IMG/VR virus record: IMGVR_UViG_3300008448_000014
Span: 32,001 to 96,000 of that record
Source: a virus
DNA: 64,000 bases
Strand: one strand, 5' to 3'
A program made the position numbers and the translations under genes. Under the pieces are notes generated by a model. The model worked only from the letters and a program-made list of their open reading frames with translations, had not been told where the DNA came from and did not search any database. Below, one piece after another: positions 1 to 64,000 of this stretch (within the stretch, counting starts at the first letter, position 1; each line of letters begins with the position of its first letter).

Positions 1-759
1 TTCTTTTTTATCTAAATTAGGGTTTAATGAGTTAATGGTCCACCCATTAATTGGTTTTTTACTTTTGTCTAATTTTTTATAAATAAAATCAGAGATATTT
101 AAAAATTCCATAATTTCTGAAAATGTACTAAAAATTCTAATTTCTTTTTTTTCATAATTATATAAATATAAATAATCTTCTAAATGTAATTTACAAGTTT
201 TTGAAATAAATATATTATCTATAGATCTTTTAGATTTTATTCTACTAATTATAGCTTTAATAGTTGTATTAAATAATACAGCAGTAGAAGTAATACTTTC
301 TTCCTCTTTCAATAAATTTCCAAACTTATCAAACAAAAATAATTTTGTTGTTTTTTTCTTTATCTCATTTTTTTCATATTTTTCTTTTAATGTTTTACTT
401 ATTAATTTTTTAGTATCTTCTGTAGTTATTCTACTTTCAGGACCAATACCTCTATCTTGAGCATTTAATAAATTAAATTTATCTTTATACTTTCCTATTA
501 ATGATGTTTCAAAAATATATGATTCATTCCATCCTTTAATTTCAATCAATTTTTTAATTTTAGGTTCAATTCCTTTTTTTAATAAAGAATTTATCCAATT
601 TACTTTGTGGGGAGGATTTCTGTTAGGAAAATATTTATTATAATATTTTGATTTACTTATATGTTCAATTAACCTTATTTCTAAAGGTTTTCTAGTTCGT
701 CCAATGTATCTAATCTTACAATCTGTAGGATCATACAAACAATATATATTTACTTTCAT
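1..759 (-). CDS. GIY-YIG homing endonuclease (runs off window start; missing from the ORF track)
   Basis: Manual translation from ATG 759: MKVKYIYCLYDPTDCKIRYIGRTRKPLEIRLIEH..., a YIY-x-YIG motif with the catalytic Arg; the frame appears open to position 1. Confidence 0.85.
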   Translation of the reverse strand, partial: MKVNIYCLYDPTDCKIRYIGRTRKPLEIRLIEHISKSKYYNKYFPNRNPPHKVNWINSLLKKGIEPKIKKLIEIKGWNESYIFETSLIGKYKDKFNLLNAQDRGIGPESRITTEDTKKLISKTLKEKYEKNEIKKKTTKLFLFDKFGNLLKEEESITSTAVLFNTTIKAIISRIKSKRSIDNIFISKTCKLHLEDYLYLYNYEKKEIRIFSTFSEIMEFLNISDFIYKKLDKSKKPINGWTINSLNPNLDKKE

Positions 760-762
760 AAG

Positions 763-770
763 CAAATATA
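763..770 (-). promoter_or_regulatory. Bacteroidota -7 promoter box TATATTTG, 3 nt before the endonuclease ATG
   Basis: Matches the TAnnTTTG consensus; a TTTG lies at 786-789. Confidence 0.65.
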
Positions 771-803
771 ATTATAATTTTACAGCAAACTGGTATATAA
801 ATG

Positions 804-860
804 TTAAATTGTTGTTAAATCACCTGTTTGTCCTACAATTCCAATTAGTTTAGAGCTCAT
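804..860 (-). pseudogene. Orphan 5' stub of a P-loop NTPase gene, broken inside Walker A
   Basis: MSSKLIGIVGQTG-DLTTI*: a hydrophobic strand plus GxxG with no GK[ST]; starts 2 nt after the stop of ORF 863..1051. Confidence 0.7.
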
Positions 861-862
861 AT

Positions 863-1051
863 TTAATTATTAATTTTAGTTTGTAATTCTTTATCTGTTA
901 AAATATACTCTTTGCAATAAGTTGTAGATCCATTTTCTTCTAATACTACATTTCCATTTTTAATAGACTCTTTTAATAGATTTAAACGATCTTCGTCATT
1001 GTTACAGTATTCTTTTAACAACGCTAATACCTGTTCTTGTTTTTCATTCAT
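863..1051 (-). CDS. Hypothetical protein
   Basis: ORF track; co-oriented and tightly packed. Confidence 0.6.
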   Translation of the reverse strand: MNEKQEQVLALLKEYCNNDEDRLNLLKESIKNGNVVLEENGSTTYCKEYILTDKELQTKINN

Positions 1052-1114
1052 TTTTTAATTTATTTAGTTAATTTTTTAAAGAATAAAGATACAAATAATT
1101 TTTTTAATTATCAA

Positions 1115-1483
1115 CTATTCTACTCTATATTTTCTGTTAAATTCTATTAGCTTTTTAGCTAATTCCTCTGGGTTTAATTCTGATTCATCGTGATTATTAT
1201 CTCTTCGTTGATGTTCTTTAAACCACCATTCTAAATCTGAATTTACAAATTTATAATCAAAATTAGACACTACTATTTCCATAGCTTTACATAGAAATAC
1301 TGTCATAAAAGAATTAAAAGCAATGTTTTCTAGTTCTTTTAATTCTAAACTTTCTAACTCTATAATTCTTTTTTTTAATGATGCATTTTCATCAATTAAA
1401 TCATCAATAGGATTACTAGGTTTTTTAAAATTATTAGAATCTCCACAACAATTTGAATTCCATTCATCTACTCTACAAGGCAT
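1115..1483 (-). CDS. Hypothetical protein
   Basis: ORF track; begins 2 nt after the helicase stop. Confidence 0.65.
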   Translation of the reverse strand: MPCRVDEWNSNCCGDSNNFKKPSNPIDDLIDENASLKKRIIELESLELKELENIAFNSFMTVFLCKAMEIVVSNFDYKFVNSDLEWWFKEHQRRDNNHDESELNPEELAKKLIEFNRKYRVE

Positions 1484-1485
1484 AA

Positions 1486-2568
1486 TTATATATATTTAAT
1501 TTTGTTTTTATCTATTAATTGAAGTGATTTCTCAAGCCATTTATTTTGAAAAACTTCTGTACTCACAAATATATGTATATGTGAATGATCTGTATCATCT
1601 AGTAAACTTCTTCCTATCATTTGCTCTAAATTTTCTCCATTACCATTAATGGCAGTTATTAATATATTTTGCAATTCTGGAAAAGTTACACCAGCAGAAG
1701 CTTTCTTTAATAAACACAATTGATTTATATCTCCTTGTTGAAATTGTTTTAAAATAGAATCATCTTTACTTTTACTATTGAACATAGGAAGATTATATTT
1801 AAGTCCTGTTTTTTCATCAGAACTAAATAATATAAACCTCTTATCTTTGTTATTGATAATCCATTTGTTTACACATTCAATTAAAGAGTCACATGAATTA
1901 ATAAATCTCATTCTTTCTAAAGACTTAAACATCTTTAGTTGACCACTGCTTTTTAATATAAAAGCACTGAGTCTGTTACATTCTTTTTTCTCTGTTGATT
2001 TCCATTTCTTTACTCTACCATACTCTACTATTTTAGTGTTATTTAAATTATATCTATGTATATAAATAGTAAAATCACTAACAATACCATCTTTAATAGC
2101 TTTGTTAGTAGAATAATCTACTATCAATTTCATTTTAGTAAAAAACTTTATGTCAGCTAAAGTTTCTTTATTATACGTACCAGAAGCAAACATTACATGT
2201 TTATTGTTTTTTGCTATATCTCCTGCAATAGGCATTTGATTTTCTTCTCCAAGAAGATGAGCTTCATCAAATACATAATAATCAGCAATTACTTTTTTGT
2301 TTTTTTCTAAAGACATAAAAGTGGAAAATATAATAATTTGTTTAAAGTTTAATCTATTTATTTCATTTTCCCAAGAAATACGCACGTCTATATTAGGATA
2401 AGCTATAAACACTGTTATTTCTTTATTATTACTATGATTTTTTATTGATTCTAAAATCATTTTTGTTTTTCCTGATCTTACACTAGATAATATAATACCT
2501 TTACAATTATTTTCTATAATAGTATTTTGTATTTTTTCTTGAATTAAATCTTTTTTTGTATTAATCAT
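1486..2568 (-). CDS. Superfamily 2 (DExH) helicase
   Basis: Walker A SVRSGKT, motif II FDEAH, SGT, QMIGRSL; likely start ATG 2568 (MINTKKDLIQ) overlapping the endonuclease stop. Confidence 0.85.
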   Translation of the reverse strand: MINTKKDLIQEKIQNTIIENNCKGIILSSVRSGKTKMILESIKNHSNNKEITVFIAYPNIDVRISWENEINRLNFKQIIIFSTFMSLEKNKKVIADYYVFDEAHLLGEENQMPIAGDIAKNNKHVMFASGTYNKETLADIKFFTKMKLIVDYSTNKAIKDGIVSDFTIYIHRYNLNNTKIVEYGRVKKWKSTEKKECNRLSAFILKSSGQLKMFKSLERMRFINSCDSLIECVNKWIINNKDKRFILFSSDEKTGLKYNLPMFNSKSKDDSILKQFQQGDINQLCLLKKASAGVTFPELQNILITAINGNGENLEQMIGRSLLDDTDHSHIHIFVSTEVFQNKWLEKSLQLIDKNKIKYI

Positions 2569-3313
2569 ATTTATATTTCCATTTAAATCCACAAGATTGT
2601 TTTTGCCTACCTTTTAACGTTGCAGGTATATCTCCTTTAAAAAATTTTTTAGCTTCTGTTACAGTTTTCCATTCTTTAATAAAATTATCATTTAAATCAT
2701 ATTGTATTATAGGTTTTGAAACTCTTTCAGAAACTTTTTTTCTATTCTCAATTGACATACCTTTACCTATATTACCTAGTTTAATTTTTTCTTTAGTAAT
2801 TTCAGATAAAATTCTACCTTTTTTAGCTTTGCTCATTTTTTCACGAGCCTCTTTTGACATTTTTTTACCTTTGTTACCTTGAGAAATTTTTTTCTTAGTA
2901 TCTTCAGTATGTTTTTTATTTAAAAAATGTCCTACATGTCCTAATAATGTTTTAGATATTTTATTTTTAGTTTCTTGTAAAATTATTCTATTACTCATTT
3001 TTTTCTTTGTTTCCTCGCTTACTATTCTAGGTAAAATATCTGTTTCTTGTAATCTACAATTTAACCCTTTAGTGGAAACAACATTAAATAAATCTTGATA
3101 ATATCTTTCTTTAAGATTTAATTGATCATGTTTACATTCTTCAATTATTTCAAAAATATGATTTTCTACGCCATATTTTAAAAAGCTTTTATACAAAATA
3201 GGTTGATTTTTACAAGAAAGATTTTTATAATTTTTAAATCTTTTTTCAATATTAATACTTTGCCCAATGTATATTTTACCACTTGGACTTGTGATTTTAT
3301 AAATTCCTATCAT
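2561..3313 (-). CDS. GIY-YIG homing endonuclease with NUMOD3-like repeats and a C-terminal NUMOD1-like domain
   Basis: MIGIYKITSPSGKIYIGQS; repeated H/SEETKKKIS; PIIQYDLNDNFIKEW...GFKWKY; likely start ATG 3313. Confidence 0.92.
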   Translation of the reverse strand: MIGIYKITSPSGKIYIGQSINIEKRFKNYKNLSCKNQPILYKSFLKYGVENHIFEIIEECKHDQLNLKERYYQDLFNVVSTKGLNCRLQETDILPRIVSEETKKKMSNRIILQETKNKISKTLLGHVGHFLNKKHTEDTKKKISQGNKGKKMSKEAREKMSKAKKGRILSEITKEKIKLGNIGKGMSIENRKKVSERVSKPIIQYDLNDNFIKEWKTVTEAKKFFKGDIPATLKGRQKQSCGFKWKYKYD

Positions 3314-3343
3314 TTTGTATAAAATTAATTTTATACAAAAATA
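3313..3343 (-). promoter_or_regulatory. TATTTTTG -7 box overlapping a perfect 28-bp palindrome that reaches the start codon
   Basis: ttttgtataaaatt|aattttatacaaaa at 3313-3340; box at 3336-3343. Confidence 0.7.
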
Positions 3344-3388
3344 AGTAATTAATATCAATATTTGGACAAAGTATTATTTTTTTTTTAT

Positions 3389-3415
3389 CTACACTTGTAT
3401 TTCTGTTTTTGTCAT
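3389..3415 (-). pseudogene. Probable orphan 5' stub of the SF2 helicase gene
   Basis: MTKTEIQV*; its ATG overlaps the TGA of ORF 3412..3630 (ATGA coupling) and it resembles the helicase start TKKDLIQ. Confidence 0.45.
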
Positions 3416-4357
3416 AATTCTTTGTTATAATATTCTTCTTCAAAATGTTCATATAAAGCCATCAATGTGTAAGAATGTTTTTTTGTTAACCATTCAGCAA
3501 AATGAATTACTTTGTTATCAGTATTAATTTTTTCTAGTTCTTTTGCTTTTTCAATAATTGGTTCATCATCAGCTATACTCACACCAGTTAATGTTTTTAT
3601 ACCATCAACTACATATTCTACTGCTGTCATAACTTCTTAGTTAAATAATATTTTAAATCTAATGCTCTTCTTTTAACAGCACCAGACATTCTGGTATTGC
3701 TAATATCATGTTTACCTATAACTATTCCATTATAACTACTAACATATCCTGTTGTAGCTTTAGCAACTGTTATAGCTTCATCCACTGTATCTGAGAATCT
3801 TTTGATTTCAGATTTAATTTGTATTAAGTCTTCTAGTTTCATTTTTTATTATATTTTATTAATTTCTATTTTGTTTTAAATTATTTTTCCATTCTATCCA
3901 AAAACCTATAGCTACTAATATATTCATACCAAAAGAAGCAATAATTTCATGTAAGTCTTCATATATATTCATAGTTAAGTGAACATGTCCAATTACCCAA
4001 AAAGGTACTGATAAATTACTTGCTGTCCATGTTATAAAAAATATAATAAATTTTTTCATTTGTCTCCTTTACTAATCAAGTAATACCATAACCAAATCAC
4101 TTTTGGCCTTATAAACTCATAACCTATCCATATTAATAAGTATTTCATTCTTCTTTGTTTTTTATATATCCATATACATTAAAACCTTCTTCATCTTCAT
4201 ATTTAGTACCATCCTTACGAACTCCCCATTTATACCACATAGCCATAATTGTTGATTCATTAGTTTTACTCCATTTATCATCTTCAAACCTGAATTGTTC
4301 TTTGTCTGATTTTTCTTTAAATAAAGGAACAAATCCTTCTGGTTTTTCTTTTCTCAT
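3412..4357 (-). other. Cluster of small hypothetical CDSs (3412-3630, 3627-3842, 3859-4059 membrane protein, 4145-4357)
   Basis: ORF track; overlapping stop/start codons; 3859-4059 has two hydrophobic segments. Confidence 0.65.
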
Positions 4358-5427
4358 TATTGTAAAAAATATGATTTGTTAATAATACTTTCATAATCTG
4401 CATCTGTAATATCTCTTTTTCTAGGCAATTCCTTGAAAATTCCTAATTTTCCTAAAAATGCAAGTCCAATTCTAATATCATCTTCACCATATGAATTTTT
4501 CAATAATCTTAAACTTCTGAAATATTTACCACCATACTCATCTTTGAGTTTGTTAAGATCATATCCAGAAGTATCTTCCACTTTATATCTCACAGGATCA
4601 AATAGAGCAAGAACAACATCTGCATCATTTTGTGTGCTAGATGAATCTGAAAAATCTTCTAGTTGAGGTTCTACATCTCCTGCTTTAAGTCTCATTGGAT
4701 TAGATATACTTCTATTAAACTGACTAACAATTACAGGAGTATAACCAAAGAAATCTCTAACATATTGAAGTTCATTTGACATTTTATCAATTGCTTCTTT
4801 TTTTGTTGGCTGATCTTTTGTTGTTTTCAATAATCCTATATGGTCAATAATAACAATAGTTATTACATTAGGATCATTAGGAACATATACTTTGCTATAT
4901 TCATCATCAGGATCTTTTTGTATTATTTTACCATTCTTTAGAGCGTGTGCTCTTAGTTCTTTGGCTATACCTACAGGATTCTCTGGACCATCTATAACTG
5001 TAATAACATCTTTCATCTTATCCATATACCATTGATAGGAAAGAAATAATTTATGTTCATCTTCAGTCATTTTTTCTGTCCAACCTAATAGTCTATTAAC
5101 AGACATACTTATACCATGATCAAGAAATATCTTTCTACACACCCATTTTGCATACTTGTATGTAGAACTTCTCTCCATTGATCTATATATAATCTTTAAC
5201 TTTATATCTGTATTATTCTTTTTAGATATATACCAATCAAAAGGATTAAGAACAAAACAATCATCTATAAAAGAAGTTTTACCACTTCCTGTATTACCAC
5301 CAATAAGAAACATCATAGACTTCCTAATACCTATATATCTATTAAGTCTATCAAATCCCATAGGAATACCATTATTGTTTCCTTCCAATCCTTTATCAAC
5401 TTCTCTCTTTAATTGCTCAAAACTCAT
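4357..5427 (-). CDS. DnaB-like (SF4) replicative helicase
   Basis: GGNTGSGKT, SMER, IIDHIGLL, VSQFNR, QNDADVV, LKNSYG motifs; TATTTTTG box at 5451-5458 upstream. Confidence 0.88.
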   Translation of the reverse strand: MSFEQLKREVDKGLEGNNNGIPMGFDRLNRYIGIRKSMMFLIGGNTGSGKTSFIDDCFVLNPFDWYISKKNNTDIKLKIIYRSMERSSTYKYAKWVCRKIFLDHGISMSVNRLLGWTEKMTEDEHKLFLSYQWYMDKMKDVITVIDGPENPVGIAKELRAHALKNGKIIQKDPDDEYSKVYVPNDPNVITIVIIDHIGLLKTTKDQPTKKEAIDKMSNELQYVRDFFGYTPVIVSQFNRSISNPMRLKAGDVEPQLEDFSDSSSTQNDADVVLALFDPVRYKVEDTSGYDLNKLKDEYGGKYFRSLRLLKNSYGEDDIRIGLAFLGKLGIFKELPRKRDITDADYESIINKSYFLQ

Positions 5428-5464
5428 TTTAATTTTTTTAATTATAAATACAAAAATACTAATA

Positions 5465-5917: not shown

Positions 5918-6180
5918 TAAAAAGAATATTGTTTACGTGCTTTATCTGTTTCCCAGAATTTAGCATAATTATGATTATAAGCATAATCAAACACTCTATC
6001 AATCTCTTCATTTACATCACTATCTTCACTATCTGCTGCTTTAAGGCAATCTAATTCTGTTGCTTTTATATAACAAGCATAACCACAAAGAGCAAGAATG
6101 TTTACATCTCCTCCACTTCCACCATTAAATTCTAATTTGTTATCTGTAATAAACTGTTTTAATTTTTCTAACTTGTTCAT
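5917..6180 (-). CDS. Small helical protein, possibly a stand-alone primase C-terminal (PriCT-like) domain
   Basis: FNGGSGGDVNILALCGY...EEIDRVFDYAY; stop overlaps the prim-pol start. Confidence 0.35.
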   Translation of the reverse strand: MNKLEKLKQFITDNKLEFNGGSGGDVNILALCGYACYIKATELDCLKAADSEDSDVNEEIDRVFDYAYNHNYAKFWETDKARKQYSF

Positions 6181-6196
6181 GTTTTTATATATTTAA

Positions 6197-6746
6197 TTAG
6201 TTAATAGCTGTATAAGGGTTAGACTCTATCCATTCTTTTAGAAAATCTTCTTTCTCTGATAAACTTTGAAAGTTTAATTCAGCAAAACTATCTCCAGATC
6301 CTATTCTTTCCCACGTTTCTCTATTGTTTGGTAATCCTATAAAATCACTAGATTTCTTATCTGATGATAATGTTAACATTGATTTCAATAATTCTTCTAT
6401 TGTTGCCATAATTTTATTTTTTAATTTTTAAAAAGTTTTCTACTAATGTTTTTATTATAAATTCGTCTGCATGGCAGTCTTCATATCCTGTCCATACTAA
6501 TGTATTACTGATTGCATCTGCTAATTCTTTGTAGTTTTTAGGTGTAATACATAAAAATTCATCTATTTTAGTTTCAATATCAGCAATAGCTCTATCCATT
6601 GTTGGATAACCCATAGAAGCATTTCTATCTTTTTCTTTATTTGAAGTAGATAGTACATCTAAAGCATAACCATGAAAGAATCCAGTTTCATAGACTGCTA
6701 TTGTAACAGAACAATCTTTGTATTTATAAGATTTAACTATTGCCAT
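6197..6746 (-). other. Two hypothetical CDSs (6197-6409, 6414-6746)
   Basis: ORF track; tight operon spacing. Confidence 0.6.
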
Positions 6747-6748
6747 TT

Positions 6749-7498: not shown

Positions 7499-7532
7499 CT
7501 TGTTTATTTATTTGTGTTCTATGTTATAAAAT

Positions 7533-7563: not shown

Positions 7564-7583
7564 AATGTTAAAATGACTAATAA

Positions 7584-12019: not shown

Positions 12020-12461
12020 AATCCTTTTATTCTAAGACCATAAGCCATATCAAACTGGTCAAACCATTTCTCTCCTCTTAGTCTGTTACATTTATAAATC
12101 TTTCTAATCAATTTAATGGCATATTTTTTAAATTCATTATGCTGTTCTCTAGTCATAGTGAAATTAAAATACCATCTGTCATCATCTATAGCATCTAATC
12201 TAGTTTTACCAACCATATTAAGTTCATAGTCTACAAGATGCTGAACTAAGTTTTCTCTTGTAAGTTTTTCCATAATTATAATTTCTTTAATCTATTATAA
12301 CATCTTAATTCACAATGAAATTCATGTTCAACTTCACATTCAACTTCTTTATGGTCTACATGTTGAAGTATAAATAATAATTTTTCATAATCAAAATCTT
12401 CTTTTTTATATTTTTTAAGAAGTTTATGCTTTTTAATTATTTTTTTAATAAATTTTATCAT
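12016..12461 (-). other. Two hypothetical CDSs (12016-12273, 12276-12461)
   Basis: ORF track. Confidence 0.55.
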
Positions 12462-13135
12462 AATTTTTTAAATGTTTTATTAATCCATTCTGCAAACAAC
12501 AATAACTCTTCAACTGTAGCAGAATTTTTAATTGTATTAGCTTTCATTGAAATAATTTGTATATTACCTTTTATATATCCTTTAGTGTTATCAATTCTGT
12601 CTACAGAAGGCGAAAATTTATAATTATCTTTAGTTCCTTGTATTATAGGCTGTAACAGAATAGGACATATTTTTGGTATAACAATATCTTCTAGAGTAAT
12701 ATTAAATTCTATTCCTTTTTTTAAAGCTCTATCTTTACAACCTTTTAACAAAACTGCAGAAATATTTCTTAATCTACTTTCTCTTTTTTGTTTATTAATT
12801 TTTTCTTTAAAAATAGGATCATTATGTATTTTTTCTTTTCTTACAGCTCCAGATTTTTTAGCATATTCAGAAACTTTGTGTTTTTCTGAACAACATGTTT
12901 TACACCAAGTGTGTAATCCACCTTGTAATCCTGCATTTTTTGAAAACTCTTTTGCAGGTTTTGTTTTTTTACAACAAAAACAAGTTTTTTCAGTTAATGT
13001 TATTTCATATCTTTTAGTTTGTTTGATTAATGATGCACACTTTCTACAAGTACTTATAGTACCATCTAATGTTAATTTTGAATTTACAAATTCAATTAAA
13101 GGTTTTTCAATATTGCAATGTTTACAAATCTTCAT
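12458..13135 (-). CDS. HNH-type homing endonuclease with two N-terminal Zn fingers
   Basis: CxxC pairs; PSVDRIDNTKGYIKGNIQIISMKANTIK; likely start ATG 13135 (MKICKHC). Confidence 0.85.
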   Translation of the reverse strand: MKICKHCNIEKPLIEFVNSKLTLDGTISTCRKCASLIKQTKRYEITLTEKTCFCCKKTKPAKEFSKNAGLQGGLHTWCKTCCSEKHKVSEYAKKSGAVRKEKIHNDPIFKEKINKQKRESRLRNISAVLLKGCKDRALKKGIEFNITLEDIVIPKICPILLQPIIQGTKDNYKFSPSVDRIDNTKGYIKGNIQIISMKANTIKNSATVEELLLFAEWINKTFKKL

Positions 13136-13141
13136 AATTAC

Positions 13142-13186
13142 TTTATTTAATGAGCTCAAATTTACTTAAAGAACTCATTAAATAAA
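13142..13186 (-). promoter_or_regulatory. Inverted repeat enclosing a TAAATTTG -7 box upstream of the HNH gene
   Basis: 13-bp arms tttatttaatgag (13142-13154) and ctcattaaataaa (13174-13186); box at 13157-13164. Confidence 0.7.
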
Positions 13187-13211: not shown

Positions 13212-15242
13212 TCACTTTGCATCATACCAAGAATTTCCATAATGTGCGTCTGCCTTGATTTTTAATGTTTGTAAATAATGGTTTCCACCTTCAATCATAG
13301 CTTCTTCAACTTTAGTTCTAGCTAATTCTGCTAAATCTACAGGACATTCTATTACTAATTCATCATGTACAGAATTACATATTTTAATTATATTAATATA
13401 ATTATTATCAACTATCCAATCAAAAAGTATTAAAGCACTTCTCTTAATCATCATGGCACTTCTGGCTTGAACAGGGTTGTTAAGGCATAAACGTTGGTAT
13501 TCAGATTTAAGTTTAAAAAATTGACTCACTTCTGTTTTCTTTGACTTATAATATGTCACAGCTTTAGGAAATATATATGTATATTCATTTCCTTTTTCTT
13601 TCTCATCAAACTTCTTTTTATAATCTAATTTACCTTGTTTATATAACTGCCATTGTTCTTTAGTTATAGCCTCAACTTTACCTTTGTATTCATTAAACTT
13701 ATCAAACTTTGGTAGAGCTAGTTTCCAACCATCTGCAGATTCTATATATCCTTGCTTAACAGCTTTATTGAATTCTTCTGCTCCCCATGTATACAATCCT
13801 TCATGAAGTTCTTTAAAAGCATCTTCAATTCTATATGCTTGTACTAATGGTATTCCTTCATTTTGATGAATAGTATATGCAGAACCACCATATTGAAATG
13901 CAAACCTTGGACTCTTTGCTGCTTGTCTTTTAGATTTATGTTCTTTAATGATTGTTTCATCATCAAGTTCTTCTAATTCTGGATATAAAACTCTAGCAAA
14001 AGCACAATGCAAATCATCTCCATTAACTACAGAAGATGTCATTGCAGCATCTCCAGATAAATCTGCAGCTACAACAGTTTCTTGACCACTATAATCACAA
14101 ACAATAATTACATTACCTTTATTAGCTTTAAAACACTTTCTTGTAATACTATCAGAAGGAAAATTTAAAAAGTTTATATTTCCTTTTCTAGTAGATAGTC
14201 TAGCTGTATCAACCATAGGATTAAAGTTAGTGTATATACGTTCATTCTCTATTTGCTTGTATATACTTTCTCCAAAGGTTGTAACTCTATGATTAGCTTC
14301 TTGAAAACTAAGCCACATATCAACAAAATCATGTTTAGATTTCTTTATAATGTTTTCTCCAATACTATCTTTACCATCTTTATCCTTTGTAGGGATACCA
14401 AAAGCATTAAAGACTTTAAGCATTTGTGATGGTGAATTAATAGATACATGTATTCTTTTCTTTGTGTCAAACATATCTATTTGTCCATCTGCAAATTGTG
14501 GAAGATTATCATATATATACTCTTCAATTATAGTTTTCCATTTGAATGTATTTTCTATGTCTTCAACCATTTTATCTTTCCATGATTTAGAGCTAATAGG
14601 AAGCCCACATTGCTCAATATATGCTAAAGCTCTAATATATCTACAATGAAGATTATATGTCTCTGTAAAGCCTCTTTTATTGATTTTAAGCATTAATGCA
14701 TCATGTAACTCAATAAGTCTATCAACATCATTAAATGAATACTCAATTGTACTCTGTTGGCTTAATTTAACTATATGAATATTCTTTTGGTCTGTTTTGT
14801 CATATATAACATCAAGTTCTCTTTCCATCACTTTACCAAAATCATGTCTATAAGGCATAAAGTCTTTATCAACTTGTCCATTATATATAATCTTACTAGC
14901 AAGCATTGTATCTCTAACATCTTTAGGATAGAATCCATACTTATAACAAAACCCTACATCAAATAATGCATTATGAAATATTAATGTCTTGCTCTCTATA
15001 TAAGGAACCAAATCACTAAACTTATAACTATTTTCTCCACTAGTATATAAGTCTATAATATAATTGTTTTTTCCTGTTCCAATTTGTACACAAAATATAT
15101 CACAATGTCTTGGTTGAAGTCCACTAGTTTCTGTGTCTATTCCTATAATATCAGGTAAAATTAAATCAGTTAAATCACAGTAATTATACTTACCAATTTT
15201 TTCAAAATATTTTTTATTTTTAGTTATAATAAAATTTGCCAT
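13212..15242 (-). CDS. polA: Family A DNA polymerase with 3'-5' exonuclease
   Basis: ExoI DTETSG, ExoII HNALFD, ExoIII YSFND, TARLS, motif A DYSGQE, motif B RQAAKSPRFAFQYG, motif C VHDE. Confidence 0.95.
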   Translation of the reverse strand: MANFIITKNKKYFEKIGKYNYCDLTDLILPDIIGIDTETSGLQPRHCDIFCVQIGTGKNNYIIDLYTSGENSYKFSDLVPYIESKTLIFHNALFDVGFCYKYGFYPKDVRDTMLASKIIYNGQVDKDFMPYRHDFGKVMERELDVIYDKTDQKNIHIVKLSQQSTIEYSFNDVDRLIELHDALMLKINKRGFTETYNLHCRYIRALAYIEQCGLPISSKSWKDKMVEDIENTFKWKTIIEEYIYDNLPQFADGQIDMFDTKKRIHVSINSPSQMLKVFNAFGIPTKDKDGKDSIGENIIKKSKHDFVDMWLSFQEANHRVTTFGESIYKQIENERIYTNFNPMVDTARLSTRKGNINFLNFPSDSITRKCFKANKGNVIIVCDYSGQETVVAADLSGDAAMTSSVVNGDDLHCAFARVLYPELEELDDETIIKEHKSKRQAAKSPRFAFQYGGSAYTIHQNEGIPLVQAYRIEDAFKELHEGLYTWGAEEFNKAVKQGYIESADGWKLALPKFDKFNEYKGKVEAITKEQWQLYKQGKLDYKKKFDEKEKGNEYTYIFPKAVTYYKSKKTEVSQFFKLKSEYQRLCLNNPVQARSAMMIKRSALILFDWIVDNNYINIIKICNSVHDELVIECPVDLAELARTKVEEAMIEGGNHYLQTLKIKADAHYGNSWYDAK

Positions 15243-16007: not shown

Positions 16008-16039
16008 CAAATATATAAAATTTACATTAGATACACAAA
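16008..16039 (-). promoter_or_regulatory. Bacteroidota promoter: TTTG (-33), 20-nt spacer, TATATTTG (-7)
   Basis: caaa at 16036-16039 and caaatata at 16008-16015; 4 nt before the endonuclease ATG. Confidence 0.75.
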
Positions 16040-16061: not shown

Positions 16062-16184
16062 TTAACCTGTTGTTTCACTATCACAAGCAATTACATCTGG
16101 AAGAATCATATCTTCTAAACTACAATAATTGTAATCACCAATGCTTTCAAACTGTTCTTTATTCTTGCATACTATATAGTTCAT
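16062..16184 (-). pseudogene. Orphan 40-codon 5' stub of polA
   Basis: MNYIVCKNKEQFESIGDYNYCSLEDMILPDVIACDSETTG*; 25/40 identical to the start of PolA at 15242 by manual alignment. Confidence 0.93.
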
Positions 16185-54539: not shown

Positions 54540-54541
54540 TT

Positions 54542-56140: not shown

Positions 56141-59100
56141 TGGTAAAGTAAAATGCACATGTGGATGGAGCTGGAACAAATCTGATTCTAGTAAGAAAGA
56201 TATGTATATATGTCATGAATGTGGTAGAGACAATAGCAACAACATGAAGAATGGTGGTTGGTTAGATAATTATGGAACACAAGAGAATTATAATGATTAT
56301 AAAGTTTCTGCACCTGAAGGAATGGTAGGAGATGGATTCTCTAATGTAGGAAGAAATTATTCTCCTGCATGGGGAGGATCATTTCAAGAAGGAGGAGAAA
56401 TCCCTAATGCACAAAGTGGTAGAGCTACAAGAGCTGATAGTCTTGCTGTATTTAATAACACAAGAGCTATAGATGATTATTATAGAAAACAAGGATATGT
56501 AAAAGAAAAAGTTAAAGATTCAAAAGATTATAAAGAAAGAATAAAAAATCGTAAAGAATGGGTTAATTCTTCTCAAAAATATTTAAAAGAAGCTAAAAAT
56601 GTACCAGTTGATATTTTTTATACACAAACAGATAAAAATAAAAATATTGCAGAACAAAAAAAATATTTAAAAGAAGCACAAAAAAGACTTTCTGAGACTA
56701 TTGATGAGAATAACCCAAAAAACTATATTAAAAAATTAGAAGCTTCTAAAAAAATTTTTGAAACAAAAGCAAAAGATATAGGTAGATATGTAGATGAACA
56801 AAATAACCTTGTAGAAGGAAAGCCTTCTGTCGAAAAGTTTTATTCACCTATAGATGAAAATAAGTTTTATCAAAGAGAACAATCTCAAGGGTTTTTAGAT
56901 TTAAGATCACCAATGCCACTTTATGATAAAAGAATCACTCCTCAAGATTTATCTAGATTTAAATCTCCTAATTCAGTTTTAGGTGAACAGTTACTTGATA
57001 AAATAATTAACTCAAAAAACAAAAAAGAAAGAGAAGCATTGGAAAAACAAATGGATGCTCTTGTTTATTCTGACAATGTAGAAATGTATGAATATGATCC
57101 TCTTGCTGTAATGCCTTTTGATATGGTTCCTCTTGAACAACAAGAGGAAAGAATTAGAAAATATGGTTCTAGTGGTGTGCCAACAAGTATTATACAACAA
57201 CATCCTGATTGGGTAAACTCTAACACTAAACCAATATCTAATCCAACAAAACATAACGTAGAAGGATTAAAACCAATGAATGTTGCAGGTTTACAAGATG
57301 TAGATAATAGATTTGAAACTAATTTAGATATTCCAACTCCTGTACAAAGAAAACCTAAGTATTATAACATAACAGATGTTAATAATCAATATGGTGGTGG
57401 AGATACATCATATAGAGTTGATAGTTTAGATGAGCTAAGAGAACTTCCAAAAGAACAATGGGATAGAAAAATCACTCCTCAATATCAAATGGGTGGTAAT
57501 ATATATCCAGTTAATTATGTTCCTCAAGCACAAGGAGGAATGTCTATGCCAGGTGCTGTTGGTTTTTCATATGCAAGAATAGGAGCTCCTAGTAAAGGAC
57601 CACGTAGAAATCAAACTGATGTTACAGATGCTTCTGCACAGAATGGTAAAGAAATGCAATACTATAGAGAAGGACTTGATTGGAAACCTAAGAGTATTGG
57701 ACAAGAAGGTACACAAGTAGTTAATTCTAGACAAAAGAGAGGACTTGATTTATTAGTCAAAGAAACTAACAATGCTAAAAAAGATAGAGAAGAATTAAAT
57801 ACAACAGGACAAATAAAAAAACCACGTTCTTTACATTATAAAAAGCTTACTCCAAAACAACAACCTACATTATCACAAGATAAAATGTCAGTAGTTGATA
57901 GACAAAAAGCTAATAATGCTATGGAGCAAGTAAATAAAGAGCAATTAGGCGTATTAGAAAGACCTCTTATTTATCTAGCAAGTCCTGAAAAAGTTTTAGG
58001 TGATATAGGTGTACCAGGAATGGAAACTTCAGAAGAAGATAGACAGAAGATAATGGTTAATAGGTATAACCCTTATCAGTCAAATGAAGATAGGTTAAAG
58101 AATACCATTGAGATGGGCCTAGGGTATGTACCTGAAGCAACAGTAAATACAGGATTAGCTATGATGGGAATGGAAAACCCAACAGTAGGAAAATTAGCAA
58201 ATGAAATTTTTAACCCTTTAGCAGGAATTAAAACAAGTATATCTCCTGAGTTAAGACAAGGATTACAAACTAATGGGTTTTTAGATATGTTTAAATCTAA
58301 AAAACCTACAAATATATCAGGACAAGATTGGTTACATAAATGGAACAATGATCCAATTACATTAAATAAAATAGCTGAACGTGAAAAATTATCAGAAAGT
58401 TTTTCTCATCCTCGTTTTGAAGAAGCTTTTCCTGAATATCCAGTTATTAGAGAAGGACAGTTAGCAGACAAAGAACTTAATGATATAAAAACTAAATTTA
58501 TTAATAGTATTAGTAATGAAAGAAGTTTTCCAATTAATACAGATGTAAAAAAAATTCCTGTATTAAGTTATGAAGATTTAAAAATAAATGACCCAAAAAC
58601 ATATGAAGAATCTATAAATACAACTGTAGGTGTATCACCAGGAAGAGGTAAGGTATATATAGATGATGCACAATTTAAAAACCAACCTTCAAAAACAAAA
58701 GAATCAGCAACTGTTCACGAACTTACACATTTTTTAGAAAATAATGGAAGTAATTTAACAATTAATGAACAAAAAGAATTGTTAGCACCTTTTGGTAAAA
58801 ATAATTTTCAATTGGATAGACCAACTTGGGATGGTAAAATTTATGATGAATCATATTATACAGAACCAACAGAAATACATGCTAGAATGAATGAAGCAAG
58901 ATTTCAGTTAGGGCTTTCTCCAAAAGACAAATTTACTGAAGAAATGTTTAATAAGGTATCTAAAGAAAATAATTGGGAAGGAATGGGTGAATATATAAAA
59001 GATAAAAAAGGATTTATAGATTTAATGAATAATTTTTGGGCTGTTCCACCAGTAGTAATAGGAGCTGGAGCATTACAACAAACTAATCAAGAAGAAGCTC

Positions 59101-59420
59101 CACAAATGAAAAAAGGAGGAATCATTAAAGATGATAGAGGACAATGGGAACACCCTGGAGAAATAACAGAAATCAATTCTCCATATATAACAATGAAAGG
59201 AGTACCTTATCCTGTATTAGGAATATCAGATACAGGAGATATGCAAATGATGTACCCAGAAGAAGAATATGAATTTGATGGAGAGAAGGTTACAGAATAC
59301 CCAATGGCAAAAAATGGAAGAAGACAAGAACAAAAAGGTTTGGTTAATCTAGACAATCTACTTAACTTTACAAATTATAATAAACCACAACCAGGTGGAT
59401 GGTTGAACAAATACAATTAA
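56133..59420 (+). CDS. Virion cargo/ejection protein with a zincin metallopeptidase domain
   Basis: TVHELTH plus EPTEIHAR; N-terminal CxC/CxxC; repeated xQxGG motifs. Confidence 0.65.
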   Translation: MSSGKVKCTCGWSWNKSDSSKKDMYICHECGRDNSNNMKNGGWLDNYGTQENYNDYKVSAPEGMVGDGFSNVGRNYSPAWGGSFQEGGEIPNAQSGRATRADSLAVFNNTRAIDDYYRKQGYVKEKVKDSKDYKERIKNRKEWVNSSQKYLKEAKNVPVDIFYTQTDKNKNIAEQKKYLKEAQKRLSETIDENNPKNYIKKLEASKKIFETKAKDIGRYVDEQNNLVEGKPSVEKFYSPIDENKFYQREQSQGFLDLRSPMPLYDKRITPQDLSRFKSPNSVLGEQLLDKIINSKNKKEREALEKQMDALVYSDNVEMYEYDPLAVMPFDMVPLEQQEERIRKYGSSGVPTSIIQQHPDWVNSNTKPISNPTKHNVEGLKPMNVAGLQDVDNRFETNLDIPTPVQRKPKYYNITDVNNQYGGGDTSYRVDSLDELRELPKEQWDRKITPQYQMGGNIYPVNYVPQAQGGMSMPGAVGFSYARIGAPSKGPRRNQTDVTDASAQNGKEMQYYREGLDWKPKSIGQEGTQVVNSRQKRGLDLLVKETNNAKKDREELNTTGQIKKPRSLHYKKLTPKQQPTLSQDKMSVVDRQKANNAMEQVNKEQLGVLERPLIYLASPEKVLGDIGVPGMETSEEDRQKIMVNRYNPYQSNEDRLKNTIEMGLGYVPEATVNTGLAMMGMENPTVGKLANEIFNPLAGIKTSISPELRQGLQTNGFLDMFKSKKPTNISGQDWLHKWNNDPITLNKIAEREKLSESFSHPRFEEAFPEYPVIREGQLADKELNDIKTKFINSISNERSFPINTDVKKIPVLSYEDLKINDPKTYEESINTTVGVSPGRGKVYIDDAQFKNQPSKTKESATVHELTHFLENNGSNLTINEQKELLAPFGKNNFQLDRPTWDGKIYDESYYTEPTEIHARMNEARFQLGLSPKDKFTEEMFNKVSKENNWEGMGEYIKDKKGFIDLMNNFWAVPPVVIGAGALQQTNQEEAPQMKKGGIIKDDRGQWEHPGEITEINSPYITMKGVPYPVLGISDTGDMQMMYPEEEYEFDGEKVTEYPMAKNGRRQEQKGLVNLDNLLNFTNYNKPQPGGWLNKYN

Positions 59421-59422
59421 TC

Positions 59423-62400
59423 ATGAAAGCACAAATTTTAAAAATCGCTGGTGTTAAATCTGAAAAGGAGTTCTACAAGAAGTATCCTTCTGAAGAAGCA
59501 TTCATGAAAAAGCATGGTAAAGAGTTTAAGAAAGCTCAAACAGCTAATGCTATTGATAAAGCACAACTTGGTGCTGATATAAATAAAAATGGAATTCCAG
59601 ATTATTTAGAGTTAAATCCTCCTACTTCTAATCAAGCATTTGGTCCACAGAATCAATGGAACTTTGGTAACAACATATCAAACACTCCTTCATTTGGTGC
59701 ACCTAGTGTACAACAAATGGCTGATAATACTTTCCAGCCTGCAGCAGATCCTTTTGCTATGCAAAACTATGGTAATCAATTTGTACAAAATAATCCATTA
59801 CCAGCTAACAATCCTAATTCACAATTTTCTAATAGTGTATTTCTAGAAGATAAATCTGTTACAGGTGGTTTAGGTGGTAAAGATTATGGTAAAGGAGATG
59901 GTATGTCAAAAGCTATGCCTTATGTTAATGCAGGTATGGATGTTATACAAGGTATTAGTGAGATTAAAAGACAAAAAGAAAGAAAAAGAGCAGCTAAACA
60001 AAATTCTTTAGTTACAGGTAAATTAGCAGAAGCTGAAGAAAGTGTTGATGTAGATGCTGAAAGACAACGTCAAGACTACGCTACTAGAAAAAGAAATGCT
60101 TTTATGGCTCCTCAAGTAGGAGAATCTTTATTTCCTGTAATAGGTGTAGGTTCTAACCCTCTTGCTCAATATGGTGGAGAGATACAAAATACATATGCTC
60201 CTAAATATGATATATATGATGATGGAGGATATGAACCATTAAATGATAGTGATAAAGTTAAAACTTATCAAATGGGTGGAAACTTTTCTGAAAAATATGG
60301 AGAATATGCACAATATGAGCCATATGCTACAGCATTAAGTAATAGATTCTTAAATCAAGGTGGACAACCTGATGCAGGTTCTATGATTGGTGGTGGAATT
60401 GGTAGTGCAGCAGGTACAGCTATTGGAGGACCATTAGGAGGAGCTATTGGTAAATTTGCTGGCAGTGCTATTGGTGGCCTTATTGATACTACTGATAGAG
60501 ATATTAAAAAATTTCAAAATGAATCTCAAAGAAACATAGGTAGAGTAACAGGACAAGCTTTTCGTAAAGGAATACAAGACCAAAATCAATCTTATATGGA
60601 AGATGGTGGCTATGTAAGTAATGATTGGACTCCACAAGTGATTGCTAAATTTGGTGATCACACAGCAGAAGACTATTATAACTATGCTCATGAATATGAT
60701 ACACTAAGAGCAGGAGGACATGTTAAGTCTGAACAATACACACCTGTAAGTAATAGAGGAATGGAAACTGCTGCATTAGGTGGTAGTGTAAAAACATTAT
60801 GGGGTGGTGAAGTTAAACCAATTTCTTATAATCCATATATGCCTAACTCTGGAGAAACAGTTAATTTCTATGGACAATCACATGATGATGGTGGTATAGG
60901 TGTTAAATATGGACAAGGTGGTGAATCTCAACAAGGAGAAGAAGCTAGTGTAGAAGTAGAAAGAGGAGAACCTTCTTTTGAGATGATAGATCCTAATACA
61001 GGAAATCCTACATTAAATGTTCTTGGAGATAGAAAGGTACATGCTAGCTTTGCAAAGCAATTAGGTGATCCAGATTTGATTAAAATTGCTAAACAATATG
61101 ATGGTAAGAAATTTAAAAATATTGGCTTAGAACTCTCTAAAAAAGAAAATAAATATACTTCTGTAATTGATAAAAATACTAAAGAGTTAAATGATTTAAC
61201 TCCTAAAAATCAATTTGATAAATTAAAGCTTAATGCATTAGAAAAAAATATTGAAGGAGCTCATTTAGGTCTTAAGCAAATTGCTGATACTAAAATGACT
61301 CTTACACATTTTCAAAATGCTATTAATGATACAGCTGATGAACTAGGAGAAAACTTAGGGAAAGATATTAGCTCAAGTAATCTTAATAAAGGAAAAGTTA
61401 TGTTTGGAAAAGACAAAGGACAAATTGCTAAATATGGTGCTACAGTTAAAAAAGCACAAGATGGTACTACTACAAGTACACCTAAGTTAACAAAAGAACA
61501 ATATCAAGAGTTACAAGATGCTTATATAAAATCTAAAGTTGCGCAGAAGGGTCCTGAAGTTGAAGGTTTTCAAAAATTGTTTCATAAATATTTTCCAAAA
61601 GAAGCTGTAGATATTATTAAGAAAGCTGGAAAAGATAGAGGTATTACAACAAGAGGTGTTGAATTAGGATTAACTAAGGAAGAGTTAGAAAAAGGAGAAA
61701 ACTCTGCTAAGATATTAGGAAGTAATGAGGAAGGTATATTTGGTCCTAGAACTGAACAATATTGGAAAACAGCTAGTGATGCATATAATCAGTCTCTTAC
61801 TACACCAGCAATTACACAAACAACTGCTGCTAAGCAAGAAGAAGATAAAGTTTATGATGTTAAAGCTAATAAGAGAAATCCTTATATTGATGCTGGTAAT
61901 CAAATTCTTAGATATTTAAGACCTAGTGATGCTGAAGAATTAGATCCTAATCAATTATATGGAGAACTATATGGTTTAGCAAATAATCAAGTTGAACCTG
62001 TACAAGCACAATTCTATCGTCCAGAATTAAATGTTCCTTATGATATTAATAGACAAGCTGCTAAGAATGATTTAGTAGCACAAACAAGAGCTGCTCAAAG
62101 AATGGTTGGATATAATCCAGCTGCACAAGCTATGATTGCTGCACAGGCTTATAATCCTATGCAACAATTAAATGAACAAGATTTTATAGATAATCAAAGA
62201 ATGAAAGATCAGGTGTATTCTGGTAACAGAGCTACATTAAATGATGCTCAACTTAAAAACTTAGCTATAGCTGATAATCAATATACAAGACAAGAAGCAG
62301 CTAAGAGTAATACTAAAGCAATTAATCAAGCTGCTCTTAATTCTATTGCTAGTAAATATGCACAAAACAAATTAGAAAACAGAACATTAAGAACATATGA

Positions 62401-62662
62401 GAATATGTACAATTATAGATTTGGTGATGATTTTGTTGCAGATAATTACAATGGAATATTCCAAGCTAATATGCCTAGTGTATATGATAAAGGAAGTAAG
62501 AAAGCTAATATGGTTCCTGTACTTAACTCTAAAGGAGAAACTATACGTTTTCAAGAAGTTGATGCAACAGAAGATGAACTAACTCCTATCCCTTCTTTAG
62601 CTACCAACCCTATAAAAGCAGCTAAAAATGGTTCTATTGTTAGTGCATACAAAAAACTATAA
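59423..62662 (+). CDS. Virion cargo/ejection protein with Gly-rich hydrophobic segment
   Basis: GGGIGSAAGTAIGGPLGGAIG glycine zipper, GQSHDDGG..VEVERGE, xQxGG motifs; likely start ATG 59423. Confidence 0.65.
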   Translation: MKAQILKIAGVKSEKEFYKKYPSEEAFMKKHGKEFKKAQTANAIDKAQLGADINKNGIPDYLELNPPTSNQAFGPQNQWNFGNNISNTPSFGAPSVQQMADNTFQPAADPFAMQNYGNQFVQNNPLPANNPNSQFSNSVFLEDKSVTGGLGGKDYGKGDGMSKAMPYVNAGMDVIQGISEIKRQKERKRAAKQNSLVTGKLAEAEESVDVDAERQRQDYATRKRNAFMAPQVGESLFPVIGVGSNPLAQYGGEIQNTYAPKYDIYDDGGYEPLNDSDKVKTYQMGGNFSEKYGEYAQYEPYATALSNRFLNQGGQPDAGSMIGGGIGSAAGTAIGGPLGGAIGKFAGSAIGGLIDTTDRDIKKFQNESQRNIGRVTGQAFRKGIQDQNQSYMEDGGYVSNDWTPQVIAKFGDHTAEDYYNYAHEYDTLRAGGHVKSEQYTPVSNRGMETAALGGSVKTLWGGEVKPISYNPYMPNSGETVNFYGQSHDDGGIGVKYGQGGESQQGEEASVEVERGEPSFEMIDPNTGNPTLNVLGDRKVHASFAKQLGDPDLIKIAKQYDGKKFKNIGLELSKKENKYTSVIDKNTKELNDLTPKNQFDKLKLNALEKNIEGAHLGLKQIADTKMTLTHFQNAINDTADELGENLGKDISSSNLNKGKVMFGKDKGQIAKYGATVKKAQDGTTTSTPKLTKEQYQELQDAYIKSKVAQKGPEVEGFQKLFHKYFPKEAVDIIKKAGKDRGITTRGVELGLTKEELEKGENSAKILGSNEEGIFGPRTEQYWKTASDAYNQSLTTPAITQTTAAKQEEDKVYDVKANKRNPYIDAGNQILRYLRPSDAEELDPNQLYGELYGLANNQVEPVQAQFYRPELNVPYDINRQAAKNDLVAQTRAAQRMVGYNPAAQAMIAAQAYNPMQQLNEQDFIDNQRMKDQVYSGNRATLNDAQLKNLAIADNQYTRQEAAKSNTKAINQAALNSIASKYAQNKLENRTLRTYENMYNYRFGDDFVADNYNGIFQANMPSVYDKGSKKANMVPVLNSKGETIRFQEVDATEDELTPIPSLATNPIKAAKNGSIVSAYKKL

Positions 62663-62727
62663 TAATTTTAATTAAAATGAATTAACTAATTGCATTATGT
62701 AGTATTGGAAGATTTAATTTTTTCTAT

Positions 62728-62735
62728 TACATTTG
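62728..62735 (+). promoter_or_regulatory. -7 box TACATTTG
   Basis: TAnnTTTG consensus, 16 nt before ATG 62752. Confidence 0.6.
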
Positions 62736-62751
62736 CTAATAAATATTTGAT

Positions 62752-63372
62752 ATGGCTTCATTTACAGGAATTATATATTTAACAACAAATTTAATAAATG
62801 GTAAAATTTATATAGGACAAAGTTTTTCTACTAGTTGTTACTATAAAGGAGGAGGAAGTGCCTTAAAAAAAGCTATAGCTAAATATGGTAAATGTAATTT
62901 TAAAAAACAAATTTTAATAGATAATGTAGAAACAGCTAATCAATTAAATTGTTTAGAAAAATTTTATATTAAATTATATGATTCTTCAAATAAAACTATA
63001 GGATATAATATAAGAGAAGGTGGTGAAAATAAAGCTTTTAAACACACAAAAGAAGCAAAACTTAAAATTATAGAAAGAAGTAACCAATCAGATAATAAAA
63101 AAAGAATAAAAGAAATACAAAAATTAGCAGCAATTTCTAGAGTAGGAACACATCATACAACTTTTTCTAAATTAAAAATGTTAACAACAAAATTTGGAAG
63201 ATTAAAAGAAATTGAAATTTATGATAAAGAAAATAATTTATTGTATACTTGTAATTTTTCTACAGAAGCTGAAAAATTAACTAATGTTAAATCATCTGGT
63301 ATAAGAAATAACCTATCTGGATTATCACAATCTGCAGGTGGATTTGTTTTCAGATATAAAAATATAAAATAA
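62752..63372 (+). CDS. GIY-YIG (Seg-like) homing endonuclease fused to the first codons of its target gene
   Basis: MASFT-GIIYLTTNLINGKIYIGQ; YKGGG; C-terminal IEIYDKENNLL...AGGFVFRY. Confidence 0.9.
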   Translation: MASFTGIIYLTTNLINGKIYIGQSFSTSCYYKGGGSALKKAIAKYGKCNFKKQILIDNVETANQLNCLEKFYIKLYDSSNKTIGYNIREGGENKAFKHTKEAKLKIIERSNQSDNKKRIKEIQKLAAISRVGTHHTTFSKLKMLTTKFGRLKEIEIYDKENNLLYTCNFSTEAEKLTNVKSSGIRNNLSGLSQSAGGFVFRYKNIK

Positions 63373-64000
63373 TGAGTTCATTTACAGATAACCCTCAAGC
63401 ACTTTCCACATTTAATCCATACATTCAACAGCTCCCTGTTGAAGCTATGGTTAAAGTTGGTATGCAAAAACAACAACAGTATGATGAGGGTATACAAAAA
63501 ATACAAACTAATATAGATAACATTGCTGGTCTAGATGTTGTAAGAGATGTTGATAAAGCATATTTACAAACTAAAATTAATGAGCTGGGAAACAATTTAA
63601 AAATTGTAGGAGCTGGAGATTTTTCAGATTTCCAACTTGTTAATTCTGTTAATGGAATGACTACTCAAATAGCAAAAGATCCTAATGTTCAAAACGCTGT
63701 TTCTTCTACAGCTAAACTTAGAAAAGAACAAGCAAGAAAAGAAAAAGCTATACAAGATGGTAAGTCTTCTCCAGATAATGAATGGTTTTTTGGTAAACAA
63801 GTTTCAAATTATTTAAATGATTCAAATTTAGATCAATCTTTTAATGGCCAATATATAGAATATAAAGACGTAGATAAGAAACTTAGAGCTTTAGCATCTG
63901 ATTTACAAAAAGCTGGAGTTGATACAACTATTGATAATCCTTTTAAAAGAGATAATTTAACAGGCAAAACTCTTTATTATAATAAAGATGGTTCTGTTTC
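63372..64000 (+). CDS. Large virion cargo protein, 5' part (runs off window end; not in the ORF track)
   Basis: MSSFTDNPQALSTFNPYIQQLPVEAMVKVGMQKQQQYD...; TAATG overlap with the endonuclease stop; open to the window end. Confidence 0.8.
   Translation, partial: MSSFTDNPQALSTFNPYIQQLPVEAMVKVGMQKQQQYDEGIQKIQTNIDNIAGLDVVRDVDKAYLQTKINELGNNLKIVGAGDFSDFQLVNSVNGMTTQIAKDPNVQNAVSSTAKLRKEQARKEKAIQDGKSSPDNEWFFGKQVSNYLNDSNLDQSFNGQYIEYKDVDKKLRALASDLQKAGVDTTIDNPFKRDNLTGKTLYYNKDGSV

Follow-up and report, generated by a model that had tools for sequence, protein, structure and literature searches.

Gene-start stubs beside free-standing GIY-YIG endonuclease genes suggest intronless homing into four genes of a crAss-like phage

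As mobile genes that need neither an intron nor an intein, free-standing homing endonucleases of phage T4 lie beside their targets, are patchily distributed among close relatives and co-convert the flanks of the sites that they enter, a behavior termed intronless homing (Seg and Mob genes; PMC2988022). Experiments in T4 have also demonstrated one-sided homing, with illegitimate repair at microhomologies (Parker et al. 1999, cited in the review PMC2988022). In the T4 MobA cassette of genes 39 and 60, a region homologous to the target, with 67-81% DNA identity, covers the nick site, and the element was inserted independently in several clades (bioRxiv 10.1101/2022.08.31.505936). In fungal mitochondria, mobile endonuclease open reading frames (ORFs) carry a replacement 3' end of the gene that they occupy, as in atp6 of Allomyces and atp6, atp9, cox2 and nad3 of Glomus (PMC3630166). 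Here we analyze a window of 64,000 nucleotides (nt), bases 32001-96000 of a 113,909-bp contig (IMG/VR record IMGVR_UViG_3300008448_000014) from an uncultured crAss-like phage, in which four genes are each preceded by a GIY-YIG endonuclease gene and, before that, by a short stub of their own start. Judging from sequence comparison with related phages, we think it quite probable that these free-standing genes entered by double-strand-break repair, co-converting a foreign 5' tract of the target gene and leaving the upstream junction inside that gene.

The likeness to T4 intronless homing (PMC2988022) extends to free-standing GIY-YIG genes beside their targets, patchiness among close relatives and co-conversion of flanks. 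Unlike in T4, the upstream junction here falls inside the coding 5' end of the target, which puts the stub on one side of the endonuclease gene and its diverged duplicate on the other; the elements also come with a Bacteroidota-type TAnnTTTG box, and cleavage by them is putative. With the fungal mitochondrial elements (PMC3630166) they share an endonuclease ORF accompanied by a foreign duplicate of a gene end, a native copy that is closer to relatives, differences that are often silent, and occurrence at four loci of one genome (Glomus); but they are the mirror image of those elements, with the 5' end replaced and the native promoter and start stranded, they reside in a phage and not an organelle, and one of the loci has its native start fused in frame with the endonuclease. 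The MobA cassette (bioRxiv 10.1101/2022.08.31.505936) likewise bears a diverged copy of a target segment; in MobA, however, the gene ends up encoding two proteins, the native segment is lost and translation depends on a bypass, whereas here the gene is undivided, the stub preserves the native segment and no recoding signal was seen. Our literature search found nothing specific on a 5' version in crAss-like phages, and to that extent the original prediction, which did not know of one, stands; its claim of novelty was nonetheless too strong given the fungal 3' mirror image (PMC3630166) and MobA (bioRxiv 10.1101/2022.08.31.505936). We regard these loci as a clear illustration from nature of homing-endonuclease biology that is already known, and not as a new kind of system; their principle is not new.

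The contig's final ~114 bases repeat its opening bases, and it is therefore probably a complete circular assembly. Its G+C content is 23-33%, and the DNA polymerase I of the phage shares ~30% identity with the enzymes of crAss001 and further crAss-like phages. Relatives in IMG/VR are many, abundant and mosaic (57-97% protein identity); the closest is one IMG/VR contig that bears two labels, L048 and L128, with flanking genes 92-97% identical to those of the window. Six paralogous GIY-YIG endonuclease genes (A-F) are present in the genome, four of which (C-F) lie in or touch the window; B, C and D are absent from L048/L128. As predicted, and at the positions predicted, all four loci have the same order (Table 1): a gene-start stub, the endonuclease gene, and the target gene, whose start overlaps the endonuclease stop. 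The targets are DNA polymerase I (polA), an SF2 helicase, a Sak4-like ATPase (the "NTPase" of the prediction) and a gene of 875 amino acids (aa) in the virion module (its "cargo" gene), each a single intact ORF colinear with relatives. The endonucleases are free-standing ORFs with their own starts and stops; the evidence that they belong to the GIY-YIG family is weaker for C and F, which are linked via paralogy, than for E and D. The stubs measure 5 codons (875-aa gene), 7 (helicase), 13 (ATPase) and 40 (polA).

Such a stub could in principle be a real first exon, joined to the remainder of the gene through trans-splicing, a group I or II intron or an intein, or else through ribosomal bypass: introns are a common location for endonuclease genes, and three of the stubs end beside GT-rich sequence. 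No Rfam family, however, matched the window at gathering thresholds or at E up to 1, Pfam revealed no Hint/intein domain, and only 0-80 nt separate stub from endonuclease gene. Three stubs end in stop codons; stops divide stub, endonuclease and gene at three loci, which is not the organization of an intein, and each target gene begins with a full start, colinear with relatives and overlapped by the endonuclease stop, which together with the lack of an intron model match sets these genes apart from the intron-encoded type. The prediction that neither intron nor intein is involved is thus supported by the sequence, and the chance that the stubs are exons is close to negligible.

The helicase is the decisive locus, and the clearest of the four, for a foreign start. 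Its stub is identical at 22 of 22 nt to the helicase start of three endonuclease-free relatives (L128, L129 and L130), and it overlaps the upstream gene by ATGA in the same arrangement as in L128, where endonuclease D is absent and the helicase follows the stub-equivalent sequence without interruption. The resident helicase start, by contrast, overlaps the endonuclease D gene by 8 nt, and the nucleotide identity of the gene to L128 is ~65% for 300 nt and ~97% thereafter (in 30-nt windows, 14-22 identical bases in each of the first ten and 23-30, mostly 28-30, in those that follow). The predicted disagreement between N-terminus and body is sharp at this locus: against L128, identity is 51% over residues 1-100 and 96% over residues 101-360, whereas against L243 it is 66% and 52%, respectively. 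The closest match to the first 100 residues, L243, itself has an endonuclease gene, of the LAGLIDADG family, and its own stub at the same place. The step at nt ~300 and the split between L128 and L243 together show that a donor tract of ~300 nt arrived along with the endonuclease gene. They also bear on a simpler history, in which the gene start was duplicated locally in tandem, the endonuclease was inserted between the copies and these diverged in place with nothing imported. Stub and resident start are indeed homologous and adjacent, as that history would have it, but divergence in place cannot yield such a step or a first 100 residues that group with another phage, and only 22 nt are duplicated against a diverged tract of 300 nt; we judge tandem duplication very improbable.

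At the Sak4-like ATPase locus the resident gene, which the prediction had placed beyond the edge of the window, is present at that location in the genome. Its stub, directly after the upstream gene, encodes MSSKLIGIVGQTG; all 13 of 13 residues are those of the resident start, from which it differs in eight codons, all silently. Endonuclease C is absent from all 80 related loci, and in 73 of the 80 endonuclease-free relatives the gene start is closer to the stub than to the resident start. Compared with L048, the body of the gene is nearly identical and the first ~90 nt are 83-90% identical. The replacement start is richer in codons ending in G or C (6 of 12, vs a frequency of 0.19 in the rest of the gene, p = 0.015); as a general mark of replacement ends, silent recoding of this kind holds for the ATPase only.

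The neighborhood upstream of this stub is itself variable: the stretch from the helicase to the stub (863-1483 of the window) holds two small ORFs of 122 and 62 aa, neither assigned to a family, that are absent in L048, L049 and L050, where the ATPase gene comes almost directly after the helicase. A small ORF upstream of the ATPase gene in L048 was considered as a decayed endonuclease and rejected, as it has no similarity to one.

The polA stub is the longest, and its match to the resident N-terminus (59% over 46 aa, E 3e-15) is the sixth strongest pair in an all-against-all comparison of the genome's six-frame segments and the strongest among stub-gene pairs. It is separated from the endonuclease E gene by 58 nt that include the TATATTTG box, and the endonuclease stop and the polA ATG overlap as TAATG. 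The stub is identical at 31-33 of 40 residues (78-83%) to the closest endonuclease-free relatives (L034, L001 and L002), the resident start at 22-25 of 41 residues (54-61%) to the three nearest relatives; against L034, the resident start is 56% identical and the body 85%. Nucleotide identity falls over the first ~120 nt of polA, a distance equal to the stub length. A foreign origin of the resident polA start is, on these comparisons, suggestive. An endonuclease E homologue is lacking at 36 of 37 polA loci, and in most relatives the upstream gene abuts polA directly; the remaining locus, in L027, has a homologue (62% identity) at the same place before polA, with a stub of 8 codons (MNYIITKH). 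Endonuclease E matches the catalytic domain of I-TevI from T4 td (PDB 1MK0, E 2.7e-16; see also 1LN0) and is plausibly active, because the GIY, YIG, Arg, Glu and Asn positions are kept; unlike I-TevI, it comes without an intron, and its C-terminal DNA-binding region and target differ.

Several further observations concern polA. In L005, which has no endonuclease before polA, the start (3998-4120) is 48% identical to that of L003 while the body is 94% identical, and it is similar to the starts that accompany the L027 and L033 endonucleases; apparently start alleles were swapped here without a resident endonuclease, and polA start alleles evidently move between backbones. At the other end of the gene (13212-13455), the last 81 residues are 57% identical to L034 vs 85% for the body, where relatives at a similar body distance keep 72-80% identity over the same residues; the 3' end may represent a second co-conversion tract. 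An HNH or endonuclease VII-like gene lies directly downstream (12458-13159, minus strand), with homologues at the same place in L023 and L037. The polA gene of L037 is interrupted by a 1.35-kb insertion between residues 410 and 411 (L037:5218-6570), and in L042 (2239-5287) a GIY-YIG gene stands between two polA pieces that overlap by ~17 residues.

The 875-aa gene, for which no Pfam or PHROG family was found, differs from the other targets in that its native start is fused in frame to the endonuclease; the Pfam match of endonuclease F is below the family cut-off. Seven endonuclease-free relatives have the same native box and start, beginning MASFTD, MASWTD or MASYTD, and endonuclease F is absent from all seven of these loci. 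In four of them (L132-L135) the box upstream of the gene reads ATTACATTTG and is followed by CTAA in three and by TTAA in L135. The 11-mer TTCATTTACAG of the fused stub recurs at the start of the resident gene. At this locus the native promoter box would now drive endonuclease F.

Both forecasts that the original prediction made for relatives were confirmed. Where the endonuclease is absent, the stub sequence is contiguous with the gene body: a search that recovered the window's own ATPase stub as its positive control found no stub at any endonuclease-free locus (0 of 80 for the ATPase, 0 of 36 for polA, 0 of 3 for the helicase and 0 of 7 for the 875-aa gene). Moreover, it is the stubs and not the resident starts that match endonuclease-free alleles, as seen in the ATPase majority, the exact helicase match, the MASFT start of the 875-aa gene and the higher polA identity given above; the stubs are thus the native alleles. 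Under one scoring scheme for all loci examined (23 GIY-YIG genes vs 499 control genes), three of the 23 score above the maximum of the controls, and a chance origin of the stubs is excluded; the helicase and 875-aa gene stubs, too short for this scoring, are shown by their exact matches to relatives. Stub signal was found in only 1-2 of 35 testable GIY-YIG genes from an unrelated metagenome sample, and four stub-bearing genes among the six of one genome are unusually dense. A metagenome contig (L222:1616-2387 and flanks) holds an unrelated GIY-YIG gene with a stub score of 96 vs a control maximum of 38.

Four further stub cases occur in related phages. Besides that of L027, a GIY-YIG gene follows a 19-codon helicase stub in L064 and a 10-codon stub of another replication gene in L075, and the LAGLIDADG gene before the helicase in L243 follows a stub of 15 codons, which matches endonuclease-free starts (0 of 2000 shuffles scored as high) and not its own resident start. 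The resident helicase starts of the window and of L243 form one allele class. Counting the window, L064 and L243, endonucleases of two families have thus entered the helicase start on no fewer than three occasions. This recurrence also speaks to the quality of the assembly. As the genome derives from an assembly, and its relatives are abundant and mosaic, a chimeric join of strains co-occurring in the metagenome might mimic a foreign gene start; the same ordered architecture, however, is repeated at four loci with exact overlaps of starts and stops, and the same structure is found in four independent public assemblies (L027, L064, L075 and L243), making an artefact highly improbable.

Under the homing model that we favor, the donors would have been phages with an endonuclease gene directly upstream of its target gene. 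Each enzyme would cut an endonuclease-free allele near the gene start, and repair would have copied the endonuclease gene along with the donor version of the target 5' end and, in three of four cases, the TAnnTTTG promoter of the element. Downstream, homologous recombination within the target gene would account for a foreign tract of ~15 to 300 nt; the upstream junction would have fallen in the recipient's own 5' end and not in the upstream intergenic DNA, and because it did so the recipient's promoter, start codon and first 5-40 codons would stay behind as a dead stub. The target gene would stay whole without intron or intein because the imported 5' end supplies a start codon overlapping the endonuclease stop; it would now be expressed from the element's promoter by translational coupling, and the imported allele would escape cleavage. 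As no stub-less donor genome was found, we infer the mechanism of the upstream junction, which may have been microhomology or illegitimate joining.

Endonucleases A and B have no stub. In B, the same genome holds an ordinary two-sided homing product: its downstream neighbor begins with 90 foreign nt, 57% identical to L048, after which identity rises to 93%, and a stub is lacking. At the same place, L126 has a 66%-identical endonuclease B homologue and L048 an 84-aa ORF.

A stricter interpretation of the stub-bearing loci was implicit in the original prediction: a dedicated, self-repairing cassette, consisting of promoter, endonuclease and recoded 5' end as a fixed unit, that inserts at a cut in a conserved motif, always leaves a stub, and whose replacement end is selected as an immunity allele. 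The predicted location in a conserved motif holds for polA, where the junction lies in the ExoI motif, and for the ATPase, where it lies in Walker A, but not for the helicase (codon 7) or the 875-aa gene (codon 5); in any case, a junction need not equal the cleavage site. All four junctions in the genome end in ACAG or ACAAG, which could reflect a shared cleavage preference, microhomology or chance, and this ending is not present at the junctions of L027, L064 and L075. That the elements bring their own promoter is supported by where TAnnTTTG lies. The motif is not enriched across the window (126 found vs 120 expected), but 5 of the 6 GIY-YIG genes have it no more than 40 nt upstream, vs 9 of 135 other called genes (the starts of two endonuclease genes having been hand-corrected for this count), which favors a cassette; the box of the 875-aa gene locus is native. 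The silent G/C-richer recoding of the ATPase start and the association of one helicase N-terminal allele class with two unrelated endonuclease families would also suit a cassette. It is opposed by the lack of such recoding elsewhere, the two stub-less endonucleases, the scarcity of stubs in the wider sample and the variability of the elements: homologous ones differ in stub length (8 codons in L027, 40 in the window), and the foreign tract varies from 15 to 300 nt. Co-conversion tracts with breakpoints measure 300 nt at the helicase, ~120 nt at polA, ~40-90 nt at the ATPase and 90 nt in the gene after endonuclease B. These lengths do not support an element carrying a fixed N-terminal allele of its own; a tract of ~15-300 nt is as expected of co-conversion, and the range of stubs (5, 7, 13 and 40 codons, with 8 in L027) and tracts points to variable repair junctions and not to a fixed cassette inserted at the cut. 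We consider the dedicated cassette unlikely, and the original prediction partly supported, its structure and history being those that the comparisons favor. A broader proposal is doubtful but worth stating: promoter, endonuclease and replacement 5' end might form a class of self-contained mobile cassette, through which GIY-YIG and LAGLIDADG genes colonize the coding 5' ends of essential phage genes without intron or intein. If so, distinct "immune" classes of 5' allele would be passed among phage backbones, with stubs as a searchable footprint of the process.

Several points weigh against homing with co-conversion as we reconstruct it. The polA N-terminus is variable across the family, the deficit of the resident start lying within the lowest 4-13% of relative pairs, and informative sites gave no significant sign of a foreign polA start (p = 0.08). 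L048 is free of endonuclease C and yet has a resident-like ATPase start. Upstream of the helicase stub, identity to L128 is 84%, vs 97% for the helicase body, on account of which the stub may have come from a donor that was itself stub-bearing and not have been made in this genome. Finally, no donor with the same endonuclease and 5' tract but without the stub was found: pattern scans returned no relative of endonuclease C, only distant ones of E and D, and no donor genome.

The value of these loci lies in a dense, well-controlled set of cases within one phage clade, four in this genome and four in relatives. They indicate that selfish endonucleases can occupy the starts of essential replication genes harmlessly and without splicing, and that endonucleases would drive the exchange of gene starts between related phages, which would explain the mosaic polA and helicase N-termini across the clade. 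For annotation, the stub is a simple signature: it distinguishes these insertions from split genes and pseudogenes, and it shows where an uncharacterized endonuclease is likely to have its target region.

Table 1. Features of the four stub-bearing loci and of endonuclease B (window positions unless marked as genome positions)
Feature	Position	Strand	Description
Sak4-like ATPase stub	804..860	-	Native codons 1-13 (860-822), broken off inside Walker A; 5 further codons and stop
TAnnTTTG box TATATTTG, ATPase locus	763..770	-	3 nt upstream of endonuclease C start codon
GIY-YIG homing endonuclease C	1..759	-	Paralogue of the other GIY-YIG genes; runs to genome 31854, 146 nt beyond the window
Resident Sak4-like ATPase	genome 31186-31857, outside window		After endonuclease C; ATGA overlap
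Helicase stub	3389..3415	-	Native start over 22 nt (3415-3394, MTKTEIQ), followed by Val and stop
TAnnTTTG box TATTTTTG, helicase locus	3336..3343	-	22 nt upstream of endonuclease D start
GIY-YIG homing endonuclease D, 250 aa	2561..3313	-	Pfam GIY-YIG PF01541 1.8e-6, NUMOD3 3.8e-14; NUMOD3 and NUMOD1 DNA-binding motifs
SF2 DNA helicase, 360 aa	1486..2568	-	PHROG DNA helicase; first ~300 nt (about 2269-2568) foreign tract
polA stub	16062..16184	-	Native DNA polymerase I start, 40 codons to just past the ExoI motif (DSETTG), then stop
TAnnTTTG box TATATTTG, polA locus	16008..16015	-	4 nt upstream of endonuclease E start codon
GIY-YIG homing endonuclease E, 253 aa	15242..16003	-	Pfam PF01541 E 9.6e-10
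DNA polymerase I, 676 aa	13212..15242	-	Pfam DNA_pol_A and 3'-5' exonuclease domain; first ~41 codons (about 15120-15242) are the diverged, putative replacement
Native box TACATTTG of 875-aa gene (TAnnTTTG)	62728..62735	+	Now before endonuclease F
Fused stub ATGGCTTCATTTACAG (MASFT)	62752..62767	+	Native start of 875-aa gene, in frame with endonuclease F
GIY-YIG homing endonuclease F, 206 aa	62752..63372	+	GIY..YIG motif directly after fused codons; related to endonucleases A, D and E
875-aa gene, 5' part	63372..64000	+	Start MSSFTD; TAATG overlap with endonuclease stop; gene ends at genome 97999
GIY-YIG endonuclease B	genome 30461-31105 (L045:12461-13105), outside window	-	Between the Sak4-like ATPase gene and the next gene

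Other features of the genome lie outside these loci. Directly after the 875-aa gene comes a single ORF of 4266 aa (genome 98006-110806; L046:4006-16806), followed by an ORF of more than 1000 aa; these constitute the large virion-protein block typical of crAss-like phages. At genome 5421-6292, beyond the window, residues 16-52 of a 216-aa gene recur, at 59% over 37 aa, in the 53-aa ORF that comes after it (6131-6292); because no endonuclease lies between the two, this ORF is probably a small paralogue and not a stub. Also outside the window, a 442-aa kinase-like ORF at genome 20468-21796 contains a 118-aa segment that is 32% identical to an ORF at genome 87454-88137.

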